A program made the translations under genes and the position numbers. From an uncultured Bacteroidota bacterium (GTDB taxonomy: Bacteria; Bacteroidota; Ignavibacteria; Palsa-1295), in the NCBI GenBank assembly GCA_963702215.1, contig OY969726.1, positions 1,681,533-1,745,532 on the forward strand: DNA of 64,000 nucleotides. Reading direction: 5' to 3'. This document shows, piece by piece, positions 15,523-27,447 of this stretch (position 1 is the first letter of the stretch; each line of letters begins with the position of its first letter). The notes below the pieces were generated by a model. It did no database searches and was not told where the DNA came from. It saw only the letters and a list, made by a program, of their open reading frames with translations.

Positions 15523-16944
15523 ATGAAGTATCCTTCAATCCTGCTTCTCTGCCTTGTACCGATATCGGCAACGGCCAAAACCTGGCTCGTCGGCCCCACG
15601 CATCCAAACACCGCACCGAGCGCGGTCGCCTCGCTCGTCTCCGATGGCGATACCGTGCTCATCGACTCCGGCCTGTACATTGGCGATGTGGCCACGTGGT
15701 CGAAAAGCAATCTGGTTTTGCGATGTCCGGATGGCATGGCGCGGTTCGATGCTGCGGGAAACATCGCGGACACGAAGGGCATTTGGGTGATGTACGGGAA
15801 TAATACCTACGTGGAAGGCTTCGAATTTTACGGCGCGGCGATTTCTTTCAACGATGGCAATAACGGTGCGGGCATCCGCGTGCAGGGCGATGGCTTTACG
15901 TGCCGCCGCTGCTACTTTCATAGCAATCAGGAAGGCATTCTGACCGGCAACGATACGGCGAACGACAACATACTAATCGAATCCTGCATCTTCGATTCTA
16001 ATGGCGTCGAGGGAACGGAGAATGGCGGTTGGCAGCATAATATCTACATCGGTGAATCGAGCAGCTGCACGATAGAGTTCTGCTATTTCCATCACGCAAT
16101 GGTGGGACACGAGCTGAAATGCCGCGCGAACCGAAGCTATATTCTCTATAATTATATTGTCGATGGGCCGGTGAGCGATGCGAGCCTTTCGATCGATATT
16201 CCGCAGGGCGGCCTTGCCATTGTGATGGGCAATATTATCGAAAAAGGACCGATGACGGAAAATTCCACCGTCATCGGATATGGCGAAGAGGGATTTAAAA
16301 ATCCCGACACGGATTTTTATTTCGTCTATAATACTATTGTGACTGATCGCAATCCGACAACCTTATTTGAAATAGCAACAGGAACGAAGATCGCATACGT
16401 CTCGAATAATATTTTTGCAGGCACTACGCATCCCATCGTCGGTTTTACGGATACCGGCAGAAACGTAATGAGTACTGACACGGCGTTCTTCCATTTTGCC
16501 GATCCACTGAATTACGATTATCATTTCAGGTCCTTCCCCGGTTTCGATAGGGCCTCGAACCCGATCAACGTGGACGGATTTACACTTGCACCCATCTGGG
16601 AATACGCCGATCCTGAAGATAGCACGCCGAGAAATAATTATTATGAAATTGGTGCCTTTGAAGATAAGTTTGCGCTTTCAGTCGCTCCACAAGTAACGTA
16701 TCCTGAAATAACAAACTATCCAAATCCTTTCAGTTCCCAAACAACGATTTCCTTGCCCAACGGCATTTCTGGTTCCCTCCAGTTATCCAACGAATGTGGA
16801 AACCGAATAGAGGCTGCAACGCATCCGGATCAGAACGGCCTCGTCTTCGAGCGCGGGAATTTGCCGGCGGGAATTTATTTTTATCGCATTACTGCCGCCG
16901 ACGGCAAAGAACAGTTCGGCGGTAACTTTGTGATTGCACCCTGA
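15523..16944 (+). CDS. secreted right-handed parallel beta-helix (pectate-lyase-like fold) protein with a T9SS C-terminal sorting domain
   Basis: Signal peptide, PbH1-type repeats (NIYIG…, CYFH…) and a C-terminal 'NYPNPFSSQTTISL…GIYFYRI' module typical of Por/T9SS CTDs. Confidence 0.75.
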   Translation: MKYPSILLLCLVPISATAKTWLVGPTHPNTAPSAVASLVSDGDTVLIDSGLYIGDVATWSKSNLVLRCPDGMARFDAAGNIADTKGIWVMYGNNTYVEGFEFYGAAISFNDGNNGAGIRVQGDGFTCRRCYFHSNQEGILTGNDTANDNILIESCIFDSNGVEGTENGGWQHNIYIGESSSCTIEFCYFHHAMVGHELKCRANRSYILYNYIVDGPVSDASLSIDIPQGGLAIVMGNIIEKGPMTENSTVIGYGEEGFKNPDTDFYFVYNTIVTDRNPTTLFEIATGTKIAYVSNNIFAGTTHPIVGFTDTGRNVMSTDTAFFHFADPLNYDYHFRSFPGFDRASNPINVDGFTLAPIWEYADPEDSTPRNNYYEIGAFEDKFALSVAPQVTYPEITNYPNPFSSQTTISLPNGISGSLQLSNECGNRIEAATHPDQNGLVFERGNLPAGIYFYRITAADGKEQFGGNFVIAP

Positions 16945-16962
16945 ACCAAACCGGATTCATCG

Positions 16963-18393
16963 ATGAAGGCCACCCTTATTTTTTTTCTTCTCCTTTCGCC
17001 GCTTCCGTCCTCGGCCAAAACGTGGCTCGTCGGCGCAACGCGGCAATACAAAGTTCCGAGCGCCGTCGCTTCGCTTGTTTCGAATGGGGATACCGTGCTC
17101 GTCGATTCCGGCTCGTACACGGGCGATGTGAGTGTTTGGAACGCGAGCAATCTCGTCCTTCGCTGCCCCGATGGCATGGCGCGCTTCGATGCAAACGGCA
17201 ACATCGCACAGCAGAAGGGAATTTTTGTTATTTACGGCGATAACGATTACATGGAAGGCTTCAAACTCTTCGGCGCAGCGATTTCCGAAGCCAACGGCGA
17301 TAATGGCGCGGGCATTCGCATGCAGGGCCACGGCTTCACCGTACGCCGATGCTATATCCACGATAACCAGGATGGTATCCTTACCGGCATCGGCAGCGAC
17401 ACTACCAACAATATCCTGATCGAGGCGTGCGAATTTTATCATAATGGTGTTGAATCGGGTTCCGCGGCCGGGTACGAGCATAATATCTATATCGGCCATT
17501 GTGCAAGCCTGACGGTGAAATTCTGCTATTTCCACGGCTCGGTGCAAGGGCACGAACTCAAGACGCGCGCCAGCAGGAATTATATTCTCTATAACAAAAT
17601 CGTGGACGGGCAAACCGGCGATGGAAGCTTTTCGATCGATATTCCGAATGGCGGCTTAAGCTATGTGATTGGGAACGCAATCGAGAAGGGGCCGATGAAT
17701 GTGAATCATACGGTTACAATTGATTATGGTGGAGAAGGCATAATCAATGGCGATTCGGAATTCTATTTCGTGAACAACACGGTAGTGACGGACCGAGCGG
17801 CTACTACGCTTTTTCATCTTCAACCGGGAGCTACTGCGCTCATCGCCAACAATATTTTCGCGGGACAGATAAGCGGCTTCGCGAATTCCGATGCAACTAC
17901 GCCTGATACGGAGGCGAACGTCGAATCGCTGGATACGGCGTTCTTCCATTTTCGCAATGTGATTGGTTATGATTACTATCCGGTATCGAATTTCCCTGGA
18001 CTTCGGAGCGCCATTTTAATGGCGACCAATGGCGTGTTACCCGTACCACTGGTAGAATATGTCGATCCGCTCGATAGCGCCGCTCGGCCGTGGGAGAATC
18101 AGGTGGGTGCATTCAATGAAATCGGGGGCGCCGGTGTTGCAAATATCGTTCCCTCCTGTCCGCAACTGGCAAATTATCCAAATCCCTTCTCGCGCGAAAC
18201 GACGCTCGAAGGCCCTTCCGGGCGGCTCGCCCTGTTCGATGCCTCCGGCAACCGGCAAACAATCGCGTATCATCAAACGCAGGACGGGCTTGTTCTCGAG
18301 CGCGGCAGTCTGCCTGCCGGCATTTATTTCTACGGCATTACTTCGCTTTCCGGCGGCACGATTGCCAAGGGTTCGCTGGTTATCCGCAATTGA
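16963..18393 (+). CDS. paralogous secreted beta-helix protein with a T9SS C-terminal sorting domain
   Basis: ~55-60% identical to the preceding gene by eye along the whole length, with the same N-terminus (AKTWLVG…VASLVS.GDTVL.DSG.Y) and CTD (NYPNPFSRETTL…GIYFYGI). Confidence 0.75.
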   Translation: MKATLIFFLLLSPLPSSAKTWLVGATRQYKVPSAVASLVSNGDTVLVDSGSYTGDVSVWNASNLVLRCPDGMARFDANGNIAQQKGIFVIYGDNDYMEGFKLFGAAISEANGDNGAGIRMQGHGFTVRRCYIHDNQDGILTGIGSDTTNNILIEACEFYHNGVESGSAAGYEHNIYIGHCASLTVKFCYFHGSVQGHELKTRASRNYILYNKIVDGQTGDGSFSIDIPNGGLSYVIGNAIEKGPMNVNHTVTIDYGGEGIINGDSEFYFVNNTVVTDRAATTLFHLQPGATALIANNIFAGQISGFANSDATTPDTEANVESLDTAFFHFRNVIGYDYYPVSNFPGLRSAILMATNGVLPVPLVEYVDPLDSAARPWENQVGAFNEIGGAGVANIVPSCPQLANYPNPFSRETTLEGPSGRLALFDASGNRQTIAYHQTQDGLVLERGSLPAGIYFYGITSLSGGTIAKGSLVIRN

Positions 18394-19275: not shown

Positions 19276-20034
19276 ATGGTAAAAAAAATCAAAGCGCCCA
19301 TCGTGAAACTGGCCGGCGCCGGCAGCGAGAACCTGGGCTGGCGCGGCGTCGAAATTCCCTTCGATGTCAAGAAGGCATTCGGCAAAAGTGGGCGCGTCCC
19401 GGTGCGCGGCGAAGTAAATGGATTCCCGCTGCGCACCTCACTATTTCCGCGCAAAGGCGAGCCGCATTTTCTTATGCTGAACAAACAAGTCCAGAAGGGC
19501 GCTGGGCTTTCCGAGCTTGGGCAAATCGTTTCCATCGAACTGGAACTGGATACGGAGGAACGAACCGTAGAGACGCCGCGAATCCTCGCAGAAATATTGG
19601 AGGATGAGGACGGCCTTCTCGAGTATTTTGAATCTTTCACCTATTCGACGCGCAAATTCATGGCGGATTCTATCTCGAACACTAAAAGCCCTGGGGCACA
19701 ACACCGGCGCGCCGAGCGAATCGCGATGATCCTCATGGAAATGCGCGATGGAGAAGCCCATCCACCGCCGATTTTGGAAGTGGAGTTCGCGAACAACCCG
19801 AAAGCGCGGAGCGGGTGGAAACGCATGTCCGTCGCACAACGCCGGGGACATTTGTGGGGAATTTTCTATTATCAAACCCCGGAATCGCGCGCGCGCCGGG
19901 GGAAGCAGGCGATTCAGGATATGGTAAAACATGCAGAATCAGATGCAACTCGAAGCAAGAAGCCTTTGTCGAACATCGGTAACGTCATTCCCGCGAAGGC
20001 GGGAATCGAGGCCCGGGGCCGAAAGGTGGAATGA
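19276..20034 (+). CDS. DUF1905 plus YdeI/OmpD-associated (bacteriocin-protection-like) domain protein
   Basis: N-terminal DUF1905-like beta region (GRVPVRGEVNGFPLRTSLFP) and a C-terminal YdeI-like helical region. Confidence 0.6.
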   Translation: MVKKIKAPIVKLAGAGSENLGWRGVEIPFDVKKAFGKSGRVPVRGEVNGFPLRTSLFPRKGEPHFLMLNKQVQKGAGLSELGQIVSIELELDTEERTVETPRILAEILEDEDGLLEYFESFTYSTRKFMADSISNTKSPGAQHRRAERIAMILMEMRDGEAHPPPILEVEFANNPKARSGWKRMSVAQRRGHLWGIFYYQTPESRARRGKQAIQDMVKHAESDATRSKKPLSNIGNVIPAKAGIEARGRKVE

Positions 20035-20093
20035 GGGATCTGGATTCCCGCATTCGCGGGAATGACATCGAGAGCACTTTTTCATACAGCCAG

Positions 20094-20804
20094 ATGATCA
20101 GAACTCTGAAATCCAAACTGCTTCTCGCTCAGCGCCAGCTTCTCCACCGGCTCTATATCAGCCGCGGCCGGGAGCGCACCGTGCTCGACGAGTTCCATAA
20201 GCTCTATTACTACTCGAACAATGCCGGCAAAACGTGGAGCGACACGTGGTGGCAGGGAACTCAAGTCCTGAAATGCCCGCTCGATCTTTGGATCTATCAG
20301 GAAATTATTTTCCGAACGAAGCCGGACCTCATTATCGAGACGGGAACCTACAAAGGCGGCACGGCGCATTTCTTCGCTTCGATGTGCGATTTGAATGAGC
20401 GCGGTGAAGTGATAACAATCGACATCGAGGAGTATCCCGGCAGGTCAACGCATCCGCGCATTACCTATTTGCATGGTTCCTCGACGGATGAAGCCATCGT
20501 TCACGGCGTCAGTTCGAAGGCCAAAGGAAAAGATTCCATTCTTGTCATACTCGATTCCGATCACAGCATGGCTCACGTTCGGCGGGAGTTGGAACTATAT
20601 GCGCCGCACGTGACCGCCGGGAATTATGTGATTGCCGAAGATACGAATATCAACGGCAACCCGGTGCTTCCCGAATCCGGCCCTGGCCCGAACGAAGCAA
20701 TTATCGATTTTTTGCGAACGCACAAAGAGTTCGAAGTCGATCGCTCAATGGAAAAGCTGCTGATGACATTCAATCCGGGGGGGTATTTAAAGAAAATTCG
20801 CTGA
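20094..20804 (+). CDS. CmcI-family (cephalosporin hydroxylase / rhamnosyl O-methyltransferase-like) class I SAM methyltransferase
   Basis: '…WQGTQVLKCPLDLWIYQEII…PDLIIETGTYKGGTAHFFA…' is the CmcI signature. The start was chosen at MIRTLKS; the ORF to 20031 overlaps the upstream gene. Confidence 0.7.
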   Translation: MIRTLKSKLLLAQRQLLHRLYISRGRERTVLDEFHKLYYYSNNAGKTWSDTWWQGTQVLKCPLDLWIYQEIIFRTKPDLIIETGTYKGGTAHFFASMCDLNERGEVITIDIEEYPGRSTHPRITYLHGSSTDEAIVHGVSSKAKGKDSILVILDSDHSMAHVRRELELYAPHVTAGNYVIAEDTNINGNPVLPESGPGPNEAIIDFLRTHKEFEVDRSMEKLLMTFNPGGYLKKIR

Positions 20805-20846
20805 CACGGAACTTGCTTTTCAGGAGTTGGGTTAGGAAGAAATACT

Positions 20847-20918
20847 ATGCGACGGAATTTTTCTCAGCCGGCATCGTTCGCGATGCATCATCATCATCAT
20901 CCAACACGCGGCTGGTGA
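20847..20918 (+). CDS. his operon leader peptide (23 aa, five consecutive His codons)
   Basis: SD AGGAAG, then ATG CGA CGG AAT TTT TCT CAG CCG GCA TCG TTC GCG ATG CAT CAT CAT CAT CAT CCA ACA CGC GGC TGG TGA. It lies 117 nt upstream of hisG and was absent from the ORF track because it is under 60 aa. Confidence 0.6.
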   Translation: MRRNFSQPASFAMHHHHHPTRGW

Positions 20919-20947
20919 TGGCTGAACTTATTCCATAAGTTTTTTCA

Positions 20948-20980
20948 AGCGCCGGCCAATGTGCCGGCGCTGCTGTTTCT
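20948..20980 (+). terminator. attenuator terminator of the his leader
   Basis: AGCGCCGGC-CAATGT-GCCGGCGCT (9-bp GC stem) followed by GCTGTTTCT. An upstream complementary pair, TCAGCCG…CGGCTGG, brackets the His codons and is a candidate pause/anti-terminator hairpin. Confidence 0.55.
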
Positions 20981-21034
20981 AATCGGTTTTTCGCAGCTTT
21001 GGTACATGGTCCCGGCCTCATTTAGAAGCTGCAA

Positions 21035-21919
21035 ATGACGATACAATCGAATTTATCAGACATAACCACCGACGCGATTCGCCTGGCGCTGCCGAAAGGC
21101 CGCATGCAGGAGGGAGTCTTGCGCCTGTTGGGCGATGCGGGCATCCGGGTTCACCAGGGAAGCCGCGGATACCGGCCAAGCATTTCGCTGGCCGGGTTCG
21201 AGGTTAAGATTCTCAAGCCGCAAAACATCGTAGAGATGCTGCACTTTGGCTCGCGCGATCTTGGTTTCGCCGGAGCCGATTGGGTTGCCGAGCTGGACGG
21301 CGAGCTTATGGAATTGCTGGATACAGGTCTCGATCCCGTATCGCTCGTTGCAGCAATGCCGCGTAGTGCGGACTTTCAGTCCGCGAATCCGCCGCTGGTT
21401 ATTGCCTCCGAATACCGGAACTTAACGGAACGATGGATCGCCGAATCCGGTATGCAAGCGACCTGCATTCGTTCCTATGGCGCGACCGAAGTGTTCCCGC
21501 CGGAAGATGCGGATTGCATTGTCGATATTACCGCAACGGGTGCGACCCTCCGGGCGAACGGCCTCGAAATTGTTGCAACACTGCTTGAATCTTCAACGCG
21601 CCTGTATTGCAATCCGCGTGCGCTCGACGAGCCCGGGAAGCGCGACTCGATCGAAAGCTTTACGCTTTTATTACGGTCGGTTCTGGATGCTCGCGACCGC
21701 GTGATGCTGGAATTGAATGTAACCGGCGAATCTCTCGAAGGCATCGTCCACCTGTTGCCGGCCATGCGCGAGGCCACGATCGCCACGCTCCATGGCAATC
21801 GCGGCTACGCCGTAAAAGCCGCCGTATGCCGAACATTGCTACCCACGCTCATCCCGCAACTCAAACGTGCGGGCGGAAGCGATATTATCATTTCGTCGCC
21901 GAGCCAAATCGTACCATGA
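21035..21919 (+). CDS. hisG: ATP phosphoribosyltransferase (long form with a C-terminal regulatory domain)
   Basis: 294 aa with a HisG catalytic core and a C-terminal ACT-like extension. Confidence 0.9.
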   Translation: MTIQSNLSDITTDAIRLALPKGRMQEGVLRLLGDAGIRVHQGSRGYRPSISLAGFEVKILKPQNIVEMLHFGSRDLGFAGADWVAELDGELMELLDTGLDPVSLVAAMPRSADFQSANPPLVIASEYRNLTERWIAESGMQATCIRSYGATEVFPPEDADCIVDITATGATLRANGLEIVATLLESSTRLYCNPRALDEPGKRDSIESFTLLLRSVLDARDRVMLELNVTGESLEGIVHLLPAMREATIATLHGNRGYAVKAAVCRTLLPTLIPQLKRAGGSDIIISSPSQIVP

Positions 21920-24169: not shown

Positions 24170-24915
24170 AGGCTCGAATCATGCCCTGCCTCAATTGTGA
24201 TGCGGGCCGCGTAGTGAAGGGCATTCGGTTTGCGAATCTTCACGATGCCGGCGATCCGGCGCAACTTGCAACGCGCTATGAGGCCGAAGGCGCGGACGAG
24301 ATCATCGTTCTCGATATCTCCGCAACCCTCGAAGCGAGGCAGCACCATGCCGGAACGATTCGCGCGATTCGGGATGCGATATCGATCCCAATCACCGCGG
24401 GCGGCGGCATTCGGACGCTCTCCGATTGTGAAGCATTGCTCGAAGCCGGAGCGGATAAGGTGAGCGTCAATAGCGCCGCGCATCGCACGCCGGATTTGAT
24501 CGATGCCATTGCAAACCGTTTCGGAACCCAATGCGCTATTCTCGCCATCGACGCGCGCCGGAATGAGAAAGAATGGCGAGTTCTCATCGATGCAGGACGC
24601 ACGCAAACCGAACGCTCGGTTACCAATTGGGCTTGCGAGGCAGCCGAGCGAGGCGCGGGAGAAATTCTGCTCACCAGTTGGGACCGCGACGGAACCCGGC
24701 TGGGTTACGATCTCGAACTCTTGCGAGCCGTCACTTCTGTGGTGGACATTCCTGTCATCGCTTCAGGCGGCGCCGCTAATGCGACGCATTTGGCGGAGGC
24801 ATTCCATGCAGGAGCATCGGGGCTGCTTGCGGCTTCTCTTTTTCACGATAACGATTATTCCATTTCCAAAATCAAGCGAAAACTTTATGATTTCGGAGTG
24901 CCAATCAGAATATGA
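24163..24915 (+). CDS. hisF: imidazole glycerol phosphate synthase, cyclase subunit
   Basis: Start MLKARIMPCLN at 24163, overlapping the hisH stop by 7 nt. Classic HisF N-terminus and (beta/alpha)8 motifs. Confidence 0.9.
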   Translation: MLKARIMPCLNCDAGRVVKGIRFANLHDAGDPAQLATRYEAEGADEIIVLDISATLEARQHHAGTIRAIRDAISIPITAGGGIRTLSDCEALLEAGADKVSVNSAAHRTPDLIDAIANRFGTQCAILAIDARRNEKEWRVLIDAGRTQTERSVTNWACEAAERGAGEILLTSWDRDGTRLGYDLELLRAVTSVVDIPVIASGGAANATHLAEAFHAGASGLLAASLFHDNDYSISKIKRKLYDFGVPIRI

Positions 24916-26184
24916 TTATTCCTTCTATCGATATTGAATCCGGCAATGCCGTGCAGCTTGTGGGCGGCGAGAAGAAAGCGATTGACGCCGGCGATCCACG
25001 AGTCATCGCGCGGAAGTTCGGGATTGTGGGCGAAGTGGCGCTTATCGATCTCGATGCCGCGCGCGGGATCGGCTCGAACGAGGCCATGATCGAAGAACTA
25101 TTGCCAATGGGGGCGTTTCGCTTTGGCGGTGGCATTCGTTCCTACGAGCAGGCCGTCCGTTGGCTCGATCGCGGCGCTACAAAGATCATTCTGGGAACCG
25201 CGGCGAGTGCGAAACTCTTGCAGCAATTACCACGGGAACGAACCATCGTGGCACTCAATGCGCGGCATGGTGAGGTTTATGATGAAGGCTGGCAGCGTGC
25301 AACCGGGGCGAGCGTGGCCAGCCGGATGCACGAGCTCGCGCCTTACACTGGCGGATTCCTCGTAACACTCATCGAACGCGAAGGCCGAATGGTGGGAACG
25401 GACATTTCCGTCATTCAGAAACTTCTCAGCGCCACCGGAAATGCTCGCCTCACGATCGCCGGGGGGATTTCCTCGGCGGACGAAATTTCCGAGCTGGACC
25501 GGATGGGCGTGGATGCGCAAGTGGGCATGGCGCTCTATGCTGGACGATTCGATTTCGCGAATGTGTACGCGGTCATGCTCCGCACCGATCGGCCGGATGG
25601 GTTGTGGCCAACGGTTGTCGCCGATGAAGACGGAATCGCACTCGGCCTTACCTATTCGAACGAAGAAAGCCTTCGATGCGCAATCAACGAACAGCGTGGG
25701 ATTTATTTTTCACGCACGCGCGGCCTGTGGCGAAAGGGCGAAACCTCCGGCAACACGCAGGAATTGCTTCGCATCGATCTCGATTGCGACCGCGATACAC
25801 TTCGGTTTACCGTGAAGCAAATCGGGGAAGGATTCTGCCACTCCGGGACGGACACGTGTTGGGATAACCTTCGTGGCATTCGCGCGCTCGAAGAACGGAT
25901 CGCGGAACGAATGAAATCGCCGGAAGAGGGCTCTTACACGAACAAGCTCCTTTCCTCCTTGGATTTTCTCTCCGCGAAATTAGTCGAAGAGGCGCAGGAA
26001 CTTTCAGAACGCCATCGGCCAAGAAGCCATCTACGAAGCGGCCGATTTGCTTTATTTCACGCTGGTTGCAATGCGCAAGCAAGGCGTTTCGATTGCCAAG
26101 GTTGCACGTGAATTAGACATGCGCGCCCTCAAACTCACGCGGCGACCGGGACTTCCCAAACATGGTAACGCTTTTGCAAAATAA
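24912..26184 (+). CDS. hisA/hisIE: fused HisA (ProFAR isomerase), HisI (PR-AMP cyclohydrolase) and HisE (PR-ATP pyrophosphatase), with an apparent +1 frameshift near 26005
   Basis: HisA N-terminus (MIIPSIDIESGNAVQLVGG…) runs to about residue 230. HisI follows (…GLWPTVVADEDG…CWDNL… with zinc-ligand cysteines). HisE follows (…EGSYTNKLL…LVEEAQEL). The canonical HisE continuation 'AIGQEAIYEAADLLYFTLVAMRKQGVSIAKVARELD…' is in the +1 frame and ends at TAA 26182-26184. The in-frame continuation to 26111 is arginine-rich nonsense. Confidence 0.7.
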
Positions 26185-26193
26185 AAAGGCAGG

Positions 26194-27447
26194 ATGATGC
26201 TCAAACAGATTACTATAGAAGAAGCACGTTCGCTCGATAGAACAGCTTCGCTCAATGATGTTTTACCGAACGCGGTTCAAATCGTGGAGGACGTTCGAAC
26301 CGGGAAGGATCTCGCGTTGCGCAGGCTTGCGGAACGATTTGGCGATCTTGCGCCGAATGCTCCGCTGATTATCGAGCGGGAGGAACTTGCGCGCGCGCTC
26401 GATGCGATACGTTCCAGCGAGCGAGCGATTTTGGAACGCACCGCGACACGAATCCGTCGTTTTGCCGAAGCACAGCGCGCGGCACTCAGCGATATAAAGG
26501 TTTCCGTAGAAGGCGGTTTCGCCGGACACACTGTCATGCCGCTCGAACGCGCCGCATGTTATGCGCCGGGTGGACGGTATCCGCTGCCCTCGAGCGTCCT
26601 AATGACGGCGGTCACTGCGCGCGTGGCCGGTGTAAATGCGGTTTGGGTTGCTACGCCGAAGCCATCGGACATCATGCTCGCCGCAGCCGCCGTTGCAGGG
26701 GCAGATGCGGTGCTCGCTGTTGGCGGCGCCCATGCCGTTGCTGCACTTGCATATGGCACCGAAAGTATTCCGCAATTCGATACAATCGTTGGGCCCGGGA
26801 ACCGGTGGGTTACCGCAGCGAAGCAATTGGTTGCGGGTATCGTAAAAATCGATATGCTCGCAGGCCCATCCGAACTTGCGGTTGTCGCCGATGACGCCGC
26901 AAATCCCGCCTGGGTAGCCGCCGATCTTCTCGCGCAAGCCGAGCACGACCCCGATGCACGCGTATTTTTGATTGCGTTTAGCGACCGAATTGTGCGATTG
27001 GTCGAGCGAGAGCTTGAATCACAATTGACGGATTTGCCGACGCAAGCCATAGCGCGCGAAGCCATCGGCAACAGTTTTTGTCTGATCGTGAATAGCGTGG
27101 AAGTGGCGGCGGAACTTTGTAATCAGATTGCGCCGGAACATCTTTCGCTGCAATTGGAACAGAAATCCATCGAGCGCTTGCACCCCATGCTTCGGCATTA
27201 CGGTGGATTATTTATCGGCGCTGGAAGCGCGGAAGTGCTTGGCGACTATGGGATCGGGCCGAATCACGTGCTGCCAACGCAAGGTTCCGCACGCGCGCGC
27301 GGCGGCCTTTCCGTATTCGATTTCCTGAAAGTTCAGACGTGGATGGATGTCTCGCGGGTTCCAGCTGGAGTATCCGAGGACATTGAGGCCCTCGCGCGCA
27401 TCGAGGGCTTGGAAGCGCATCGCCGCTCAATGGCGATGCGCGCTTAG
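26194..27447 (+). CDS. hisD: histidinol dehydrogenase
   Basis: 417 aa with HisD motifs (…AGPSE…, …QAEHD…, zinc-ligand His/Asp region). Confidence 0.9.
   Translation: MMLKQITIEEARSLDRTASLNDVLPNAVQIVEDVRTGKDLALRRLAERFGDLAPNAPLIIEREELARALDAIRSSERAILERTATRIRRFAEAQRAALSDIKVSVEGGFAGHTVMPLERAACYAPGGRYPLPSSVLMTAVTARVAGVNAVWVATPKPSDIMLAAAAVAGADAVLAVGGAHAVAALAYGTESIPQFDTIVGPGNRWVTAAKQLVAGIVKIDMLAGPSELAVVADDAANPAWVAADLLAQAEHDPDARVFLIAFSDRIVRLVERELESQLTDLPTQAIAREAIGNSFCLIVNSVEVAAELCNQIAPEHLSLQLEQKSIERLHPMLRHYGGLFIGAGSAEVLGDYGIGPNHVLPTQGSARARGGLSVFDFLKVQTWMDVSRVPAGVSEDIEALARIEGLEAHRRSMAMRA

Follow-up and report, generated by a model that had tools for sequence, protein, structure and literature searches.

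Is the histidine operon in this stretch of DNA, which comes from an uncultured member of the Ignavibacteria, controlled by a leader-peptide attenuator? The question is raised by a short open reading frame (ORF) with a run of His codons and by a G:C-rich hairpin, both located directly upstream of hisG in the 64-kb stretch analyzed here (hereafter the window). In an earlier note, these elements had been read as ribosome-mediated his attenuation, a type of control that was described there as classically proteobacterial. This description is true of the experimental work, in which His-leader attenuation has been studied in gammaproteobacteria (PMC9413887, PMC3766115), but predictions already exist in Firmicutes (PMC9413887, PMC2965389). 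Leader-peptide attenuators of other amino acid operons have also been predicted in Actinobacteria (PMC1262725).

The his operon and its leader ORF

The operon and the ORF upstream of it are formed by the following features:

21035-21919, + strand: hisG, long form, 294 aa, first gene of the his operon, with the Pfam domains HisG and HisG_C
20847-20918, + strand: leader ORF of 23 codons plus UGA, MRRNFSQPASFAMHHHHHPTRGW followed by the stop, read from the sequence as ATG...TGA
20886-20900, + strand: region 1, the regulatory codons, five consecutive CAU (CAT) His codons

The genes of the operon are arranged in the order hisG-hisC-hisB-hisH-hisF-(hisA+hisIE fusion)-hisD, up to hisD at 27447. The fusion of hisA and hisIE, which had been claimed earlier, was confirmed by the domains of a single 399-aa ORF (24912-26111) combining hisA (His_biosynth) with hisIE (PRA-CH and a weak match to PRA-PH); the PRA-PH part of this fusion is short and weakly scoring. 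The genomic context was also found to be T9SS-bearing and non-enterobacterial as described, with two T9SS sorting-domain proteins (15523-18393) scoring above the NCBIfam cut-offs. These two proteins are adjacent paralogues (15523-16944 and 16963-18393) of about 475 aa each; apart from the T9SS type-A sorting domain at the C terminus (TIGR04183, 30.6 and 24.8 bits, cut-off 23), they lack Pfam domains. Together with the best HisG match, an Ignavibacteriota MAG, these sorting domains point to the lineage of the window. A methyltransferase gene (20031-20804) is located upstream of the leader on the same strand.

The 23-codon ORF with five CAT codons is present as the earlier note had it, and it has the form expected of a classical attenuator, i.e., a short ORF with tandem end-product codons upstream of the first biosynthetic gene. 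When all six frames of the window were scanned, the codons at 20886-20900 were the single run of at least four consecutive His codons, and a run of five is expected from the composition about 0.004 times in the window. The last of these codons is 135 nt from the start of hisG, and the end of the leader ORF is 116 nt from it. No codon bias for His was found in the nine window genes counted (CAC 40 vs CAT 38).

Alternative folds of the leader RNA

Downstream of the His codons, the RNA contains one terminator-like hairpin and several segments that are able to pair in more than one way:

20948-20971, + strand: terminator hairpin (regions 3 and 4), AGCGCCGGC, loop CAAUGU, GCCGGCGCU
20950-20957, + strand: core of region 3, CGCCGGCC, within the terminator 5' arm
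20910-20925, + strand: region 2, the 5' strand of the antiterminator, which pairs with region 3 in stalled-ribosome folds
20924-20942, + strand: small spacer hairpin, GAACUUAU / AUAAGUUU, which bridges regions 2 and 3 in stalled-ribosome folds
20864-20870, + strand: UCAGCCG, an optional partner of region 2, pairing with GGCUGA (20920-20925) or CGGCUGG (20909-20915)

The terminator stem has nine base pairs, eight of which are G-C (AGCGCCGGC, 20948-20956, with GCCGGCGCT, 20963-20971), and is closed by a 6-nt loop. Its folding energy is -18.6 to -19.9 kcal/mol, and it was the only terminator-like site called in 20300-21300. The 9-bp GC stem reported earlier is thus present after the leader ORF, although it follows the stop codon at 29 nt and not at the 30 nt given before.

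The free leader RNA folds well (z = -3.5). However, equilibrium folding with ribosome masks was uninformative, as the terminator appeared in every masked state (pair probability 0.99), and therefore a kinetic analysis was used, in which only the RNA downstream of the ribosome was folded, before the terminator 3' arm is transcribed. The attenuator model depends on co-transcriptional order, like all classical attenuators. Once a ribosome on a His codon masks the RNA 5' of region 2, GGCUGGUG (20910-20917) pairs with CGCCGGCC (20950-20957). Whichever of the five His codons the ribosome was placed on, the result was a single 2:3 fold of -20.3 kcal/mol, which occupies seven of the nine nucleotides of the terminator 5' arm. 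The core of region 2, GGCUGGUG, extends from the last two sense codons (Gly22 and Trp23) into the UGA stop (20916-20918), of which it takes in the first two bases, so that a ribosome at the stop covers it fully. The best alternative fold in this state was only -1.2 kcal/mol, with the terminator 5' arm left free. Folding of this region, which had been proposed as a check for mutually exclusive structures, therefore revealed an antiterminator pairing that excludes the terminator, uses its 5' arm and is free only under a stall at the His codons.

The pairing of regions 1 and 2 is less clear. AUCAUCA can pair with UGGUGAU (duplex -16.1 kcal/mol, z -2.7 against shuffles), and in the minimum-energy folds of the free RNA UCAGCC is paired with GGCUGA; together, these two pairings would make a classical 1:2 anti-antiterminator. 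In the window, the 1:2 and 2:3 pairings are nearly iso-energetic. The anti-antiterminator formed with a long but not with a short 5' context and was significant in 26 of 46 leaders of the family described below. It had also been suggested that TCAGCCG (20864-20870) and CGGCTGG (20909-20915) could act as a pause or antiterminator element. The two are complementary over 7 bp, one pair being G.U, and CGGCTGG is best taken as the antiterminator strand, whereas the pairing of TCAGCCG is at most that of an optional anti-antiterminator. UCAGCCG is not kept across the family and its role is uncertain.

Proposed mechanism

From these folds, the element most likely senses charged tRNA-His and controls the his operon by ribosome-mediated (leader-peptide) transcription attenuation. 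The sequence elements, the exclusive pairings, the geometry of the ribosome footprint, and the conservation and co-variation across loci argue for this reading, and the earlier proposal of His attenuation thus gained in silico support from the exclusive pairings and from the conserved micro-ORF and hairpin. The transcription start is presumably located at the leader ATG or 5' of it, and RNA polymerase would make the leader RNA while a ribosome translates the 23-codon ORF. When His-tRNA is plentiful, the ribosome would reach the UGA (20916-20918) and cover about 20901-20928, including GGCUGGUG. With region 2 masked, there would be no competitor for the terminator 5' arm; the hairpin at 20948-20971, which is taken to terminate the host polymerase, would form and transcription would end before hisG. 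When charged His-tRNA is scarce, the ribosome would stall on one of the CAU codons (20886-20900) and leave region 2 exposed 10-25 nt downstream. The exposed region 2 would then pair with CGCCGGCC (20950-20957) ahead of the synthesis of the 3' arm, so that no terminator could form. His starvation would in this way relieve termination, with read-through into hisG-hisC-hisB-hisH-hisF-hisA/IE-hisD.

Conservation in the closest relatives

Related loci were collected by HisG searches, which gave 80 species-representative genome loci and 80 metagenome loci with HisG 59-85% identical. The closest locus with an upstream region is L081 (HisG 81% identical), the leader of which reads MNSRNNFTQHLHHHPPHGW followed by the stop; in L002, an Ignavibacteriota MAG (HisG 71% identical), the leader reads MNLRTNATQHHHHHTRGR followed by the stop. 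In both loci, the stretch that begins at the His codons and closes with the terminator is far more conserved than its flanks and the terminators are nearly identical to that of the window. The sequence of the spacer hairpin is kept in L081 and largely in L002, and L002 has GGCCGG in place of the GGCUGG of the window, by which the G.U pair becomes G-C. The micro-ORF and the hairpin are kept not only in these two loci but also in about 75 more distant ones, which answers the question of conservation raised by the earlier note. Two minus-strand ORFs over the leader (20845-21021 and 20832-20900) were considered and rejected, as the model matches are strand-specific; the longer of them (20845-21021) is broken by a stop in L002.

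In these closest relatives, the conserved sequence begins at a promoter-like box and stops short of the upstream gene. Upstream genes vary by locus, while the order hisG-hisC-hisB is common to the relatives with the leader; the leader seems to travel with the his operon. The sequences just before the leader ORF are:

20808-20836, + strand: candidate promoter, GGAACTT (20808-20814), a 15-nt gap and GGTTAGG (20830-20836)
20834-20839, + strand: SD-like AGGAAG, read from the sequence, 7 nt before the leader ATG

Written as hexamers, the box is GGAACT, 17 nt, GTTAGG, 10 nt and the ATG. GGAACTT-N15-GGTTA is kept with the same spacing in L081 and L002, and the sequence further upstream is unrelated. 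In most family members (55 of 66), TTGAC(A/T) begins 35-40 nt (mode 36) 5' of the leader start codon, followed by a -10-like hexamer whose end is 7-10 nt away from that codon, and the geometry of the box in the window matches that of these 55 leaders. The form shared by the window subgroup, GGAACT, 17 nt, GTTA(G/A)(G/C), resembles ECF-type -35/-10 elements. Judged from this spacing, the leader ORF is probably leaderless or near-leaderless in most family members. The AGGAAG in the window had been regarded as a good SD; it is present, but it is kept neither in L081 nor in L002 and overlaps the -10-like part of the conserved box, and because of this the leader ORF of the window may also be nearly leaderless, in which case AGGAAG may be outside the transcript.

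A proposed leader family across phyla

The same arrangement was found in about 77 of the 160 loci. According to the titles of the records, from which the taxonomy was taken, the carriers belong to Planctomycetota (mainly Phycisphaerae), Myxococcota/Bradymonadia, 'Deltaproteobacteria' MAGs, Acidobacteriota, Ignavibacteriota, Gemmatimonadota, Sumerlaeota, and Eisenbacteria. The leader motif was found in none of about 25 loci labeled Alphaproteobacteria, Geminicoccaceae or Pseudomonadota (L004, L009, L019, L021, L022, L025, L026, L028, L032-L035, L040, L042, L043, L049, L054, L055, L057, L059, L066, L069, L070, and L079). The HisG proteins of these motif-less loci are just as similar to that of the window (62-67% identical). 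One carrier, L052, is recorded as 'uncultured Enterobacteriaceae'; its label looks wrong, the DNA around the leader having 72% GC and the leader motif being non-enterobacterial.

His-rich micro-ORFs occur 60-240 nt 5' of hisG in 72 of the 151 loci with enough upstream sequence. In these 151 loci, runs of at least three His codons are 26-fold enriched in the 300 nt upstream of hisG (1.69/kb vs 0.065/kb elsewhere). The shared motif consists of (CAY)n; GGCCGG-UGA-UGGUG; about 30 nt; and (A/G)CGCCGGCC, a loop, GGCCGGCG(U/C) and a U-run. Over 48 non-redundant leaders, 93% pairing was obtained for the terminator helix, and compensatory changes are seen at six of its nine pairs, which was equaled by none of 500 shuffles. 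In two loci (L044, 2674-2852, and L037, 1289-1448), the leader ORF reads past the UGA in GGUGAUGG, which is out of frame, and is 40-80 nt longer; this could be a variant design or a frameshift error in the MAG.

These comparative data bear on the reading that a chance micro-ORF stands beside the ordinary terminator of an upstream methyltransferase operon (20031-20804), with no regulation involved. In favor of it, no further terminator-like site was called for the upstream gene, which shares the strand of the leader, and as a triplet repeat (CAT)5 might be prone to slippage. However, the His run, the context of the stop codon, the spacing and the hairpin recur at about 77 hisG loci with unrelated upstream genes; the mixed CAC and CAT codons in relatives mean that the run is no simple repeat; and the enrichment of His runs upstream of hisG would not be expected by chance. 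This reading is therefore very improbable and is effectively refuted by the comparative data.

The antiterminator was more difficult to follow through the alignments. On the MAFFT alignment, the antiterminator in the register of the window is 72% paired, the best of all slid registers; it is only 72% because subgroups differ in register. When covariation of the antiterminator was scored column by column, on either MAFFT or covariance-model alignments, these register differences (GGCCGGUGA vs GCCGGGUGA) blurred the signal, and an alignment-free own-versus-other duplex test was used instead. Region 2 pairs better with the terminator arm of its own leader than with those of other leaders (-21.7 vs -18.5 kcal/mol), a difference that none of 10000 permutations equaled. 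Divergent arms are matched by a divergent region 2 in L031, L053, and L064; for example, GGGCGGGUCGG pairs with CCGACGCCCGCCC in L031. In all of the 23 relatives analyzed, the stalled-ribosome fold pairs 5-15 nt of the terminator 5' arm, with energies of -8.9 to -62.7 kcal/mol against -0.5 to -8.7 kcal/mol for the alternative with the ribosome at the stop, although in some of them the latter fold still touches several bases of the terminator arm.

Another reading is that the His-rich peptide itself is the functional product, e.g., in metal binding or signaling, with the RNA structures being incidental. Trans-acting leader peptides are known from some bacteria (peTrpL, PMC7298713). The sequence and length of the peptide, however, vary freely outside the His run, the C-terminal GR, AG or GW before the stop reflects the conserved nucleotides GGCCGG-UGA, and it is the RNA that is conserved, in connection with the terminator arm. 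A functional peptide is thus hardly to be expected as the explanation of the element, and attenuation remains the preferred reading.

Two covariance models were built for the leader. The first, R1, matches about 30 of the 80 genome loci and 47 of the 80 metagenome loci, and every match is on the sense strand just 5' of hisG. Its matches outside the seed, e.g., in Gemmatimonadota and Eisenbacteria MAGs, carry interrupted His-rich ORFs, as in a Gemmatimonadota example (MKNSTRHHRHHRSHHVHSGGAR followed by the stop). The second, R2, was built without the window, L081 and L002, and it matches 20886-20980 with 44.1 bits (E 2e-8) as the sole significant match in the 64 kb. No element common to all loci was found between the terminator and hisG. 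The leader of the window may quite possibly, although we propose this only tentatively, be one member of a single, uncatalogued His-leader RNA family, not represented in Rfam 15, that is conserved in sequence over at least eight phylum-level lineages. The features proposed for this family are (CAY)n, GGCCGG-UGA-UGGUG, about 30 nt and ACGCCGGCC...GGCCGGCGU-U(n), with the stop codon placed within the antiterminator strand and a leader ORF that is usually leaderless, and it is associated with a hisG-hisC-hisB operon.

Terminator tail and the output of the proposed switch

Two features between the terminator stem and hisG bear on how the proposed His-codon sensor would act on expression:

20972-20980, + strand: terminator tail, GCUGUUUCU, an imperfect U-tract
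20993-21032, + strand: second hairpin, GCAGCUUU / GAAGCUGC, fold -19.1 kcal/mol, z -2.2

A predicted intrinsic terminator separates the leader ORF from hisG, but its U-tract is interrupted. The sequence directly 3' of the hairpin is GCTGTTTCT; the U-tract GCUGUUUCU is weak, being interrupted, and GC intervenes between stem and tail. The U-rich tail described earlier is hence T-containing but neither continuous nor directly attached to the stem. The tail GCUGCUGUUU is identical in L081 and L002, and a stronger U-run is found in most other family members. The second hairpin buries an SD-like AGAAG and ends 2 nt short of the hisG AUG. It is retained in L081 (AGGAG), where the changes partly compensate one another, and L002 lacks it. 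Pairings that would couple this hairpin to the state of the leader were not found. The hairpin may be an added translational layer or a stabilizer of the mRNA.

The same sensor could therefore have another output, with the hairpin at 20948-20971 being an inefficient terminator and control being exerted on hisG translation or mRNA stability through the RBS hairpin (20993-21032), or by Rho-dependent termination. The imperfect U-tract and the burial of an SD-like sequence of hisG in a stable hairpin that is kept in L081 would fit such an output, and translational attenuator variants have been mentioned (PMC9413887). On the other hand, a strong U-run comes right after the same hairpin in most family members, the RBS hairpin is not general in the family and is missing from L002, and the leader state is not connected to it by any pairing found. 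We consider this alternative unlikely, and transcription attenuation at the hairpin is the reading carried on below.

Comparison with known systems

No match to the Rfam model of the enterobacterial his leader (His_leader, RF00514) was obtained at E<=10 in 20700-21150 or at E<=1 in seven related loci. T-box riboswitches, also common among the RNA regulators of his genes, likewise gave no match with their Rfam model at E<=10 in the window region. Scans of the window region and the seven loci with Rfam 15 returned noise only (snoRNA, STnc350, mir-8338), and a match to Thr_leader was sub-threshold (28.8 vs 55 bits).

The element resembles the enterobacterial hisL (RF00514) in that a short ORF with tandem His codons is placed directly 5' of an operon with a long-form hisG and in that the position of the ribosome chooses between antiterminator and terminator, but there is no detectable homology in sequence or structure. 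The his leader of E. coli and Salmonella contains seven His codons, and its six segments (A-F) form five alternative stems. In contrast, the element of the window is simpler, with three or four segments, and its stop codon is inside the antiterminator strand. It shares its minimal logic with trpL of E. coli, in which the regulatory codons likewise precede the stop by a few codons, region 2 is masked once the ribosome has reached the stop, and the 2:3 pairing excludes 3:4. It differs from trpL in that His and not Trp is sensed, in its unrelated sequence, and in the weak or ambiguous 1:2 pairing of the window. Leader-peptide attenuators are reportedly also among the predictions for Bacteroidetes/Chlorobi in the abstract of Vitreschak et al. 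2004.

Outside Proteobacteria, His-leader attenuators have been predicted in Firmicutes, i.e., in the B. cereus group, Peptostreptococcaceae, and Erysipelotrichales (PMC9413887, PMC2965389). These are like the present element in having a predicted His-rich leader peptide with a terminator and an antiterminator. However, they are also found upstream of hisZ or his transporters and have been described as lineage-restricted independent inventions, whereas the motif of the window is conserved in sequence across many phyla. Leaderless attenuator ORFs are known from Deinococcus deserti and from the poly-Cys uORFs of mycobacteria, which start at or within a few nucleotides of the transcription start site (PMC4007540; bioRxiv 10.1101/834739). 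In the family described here, by comparison, the leaderless state is deduced from geometry only, and in the window GGAACT...GTTAGG replaces TTGACA...TAnnnT.

Implications

For the his operon of this genome, a concrete and testable model of regulation has been gained. Textbook and Rfam coverage of amino acid leader-peptide attenuators is essentially gammaproteobacterial, and a gammaproteobacterial origin with few transfers has been suggested by one comparative study (PMC3766115). The mechanism of attenuation itself is textbook, and the wider meaning of the result would come from the distribution of the leader. If the reading as a single family is true, it would imply either that the family is very old or that operon and switch have been passed on jointly by repeated horizontal transfer. 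If it holds up, such a cross-phylum distribution would merit a new Rfam family and would improve annotation, since leader micro-ORFs are not called as genes. It would also provide a marker for tracing the transfer of the his operon, as well as a natural series of variants for the study of transcription-translation coupling in phyla where this coupling is unstudied.
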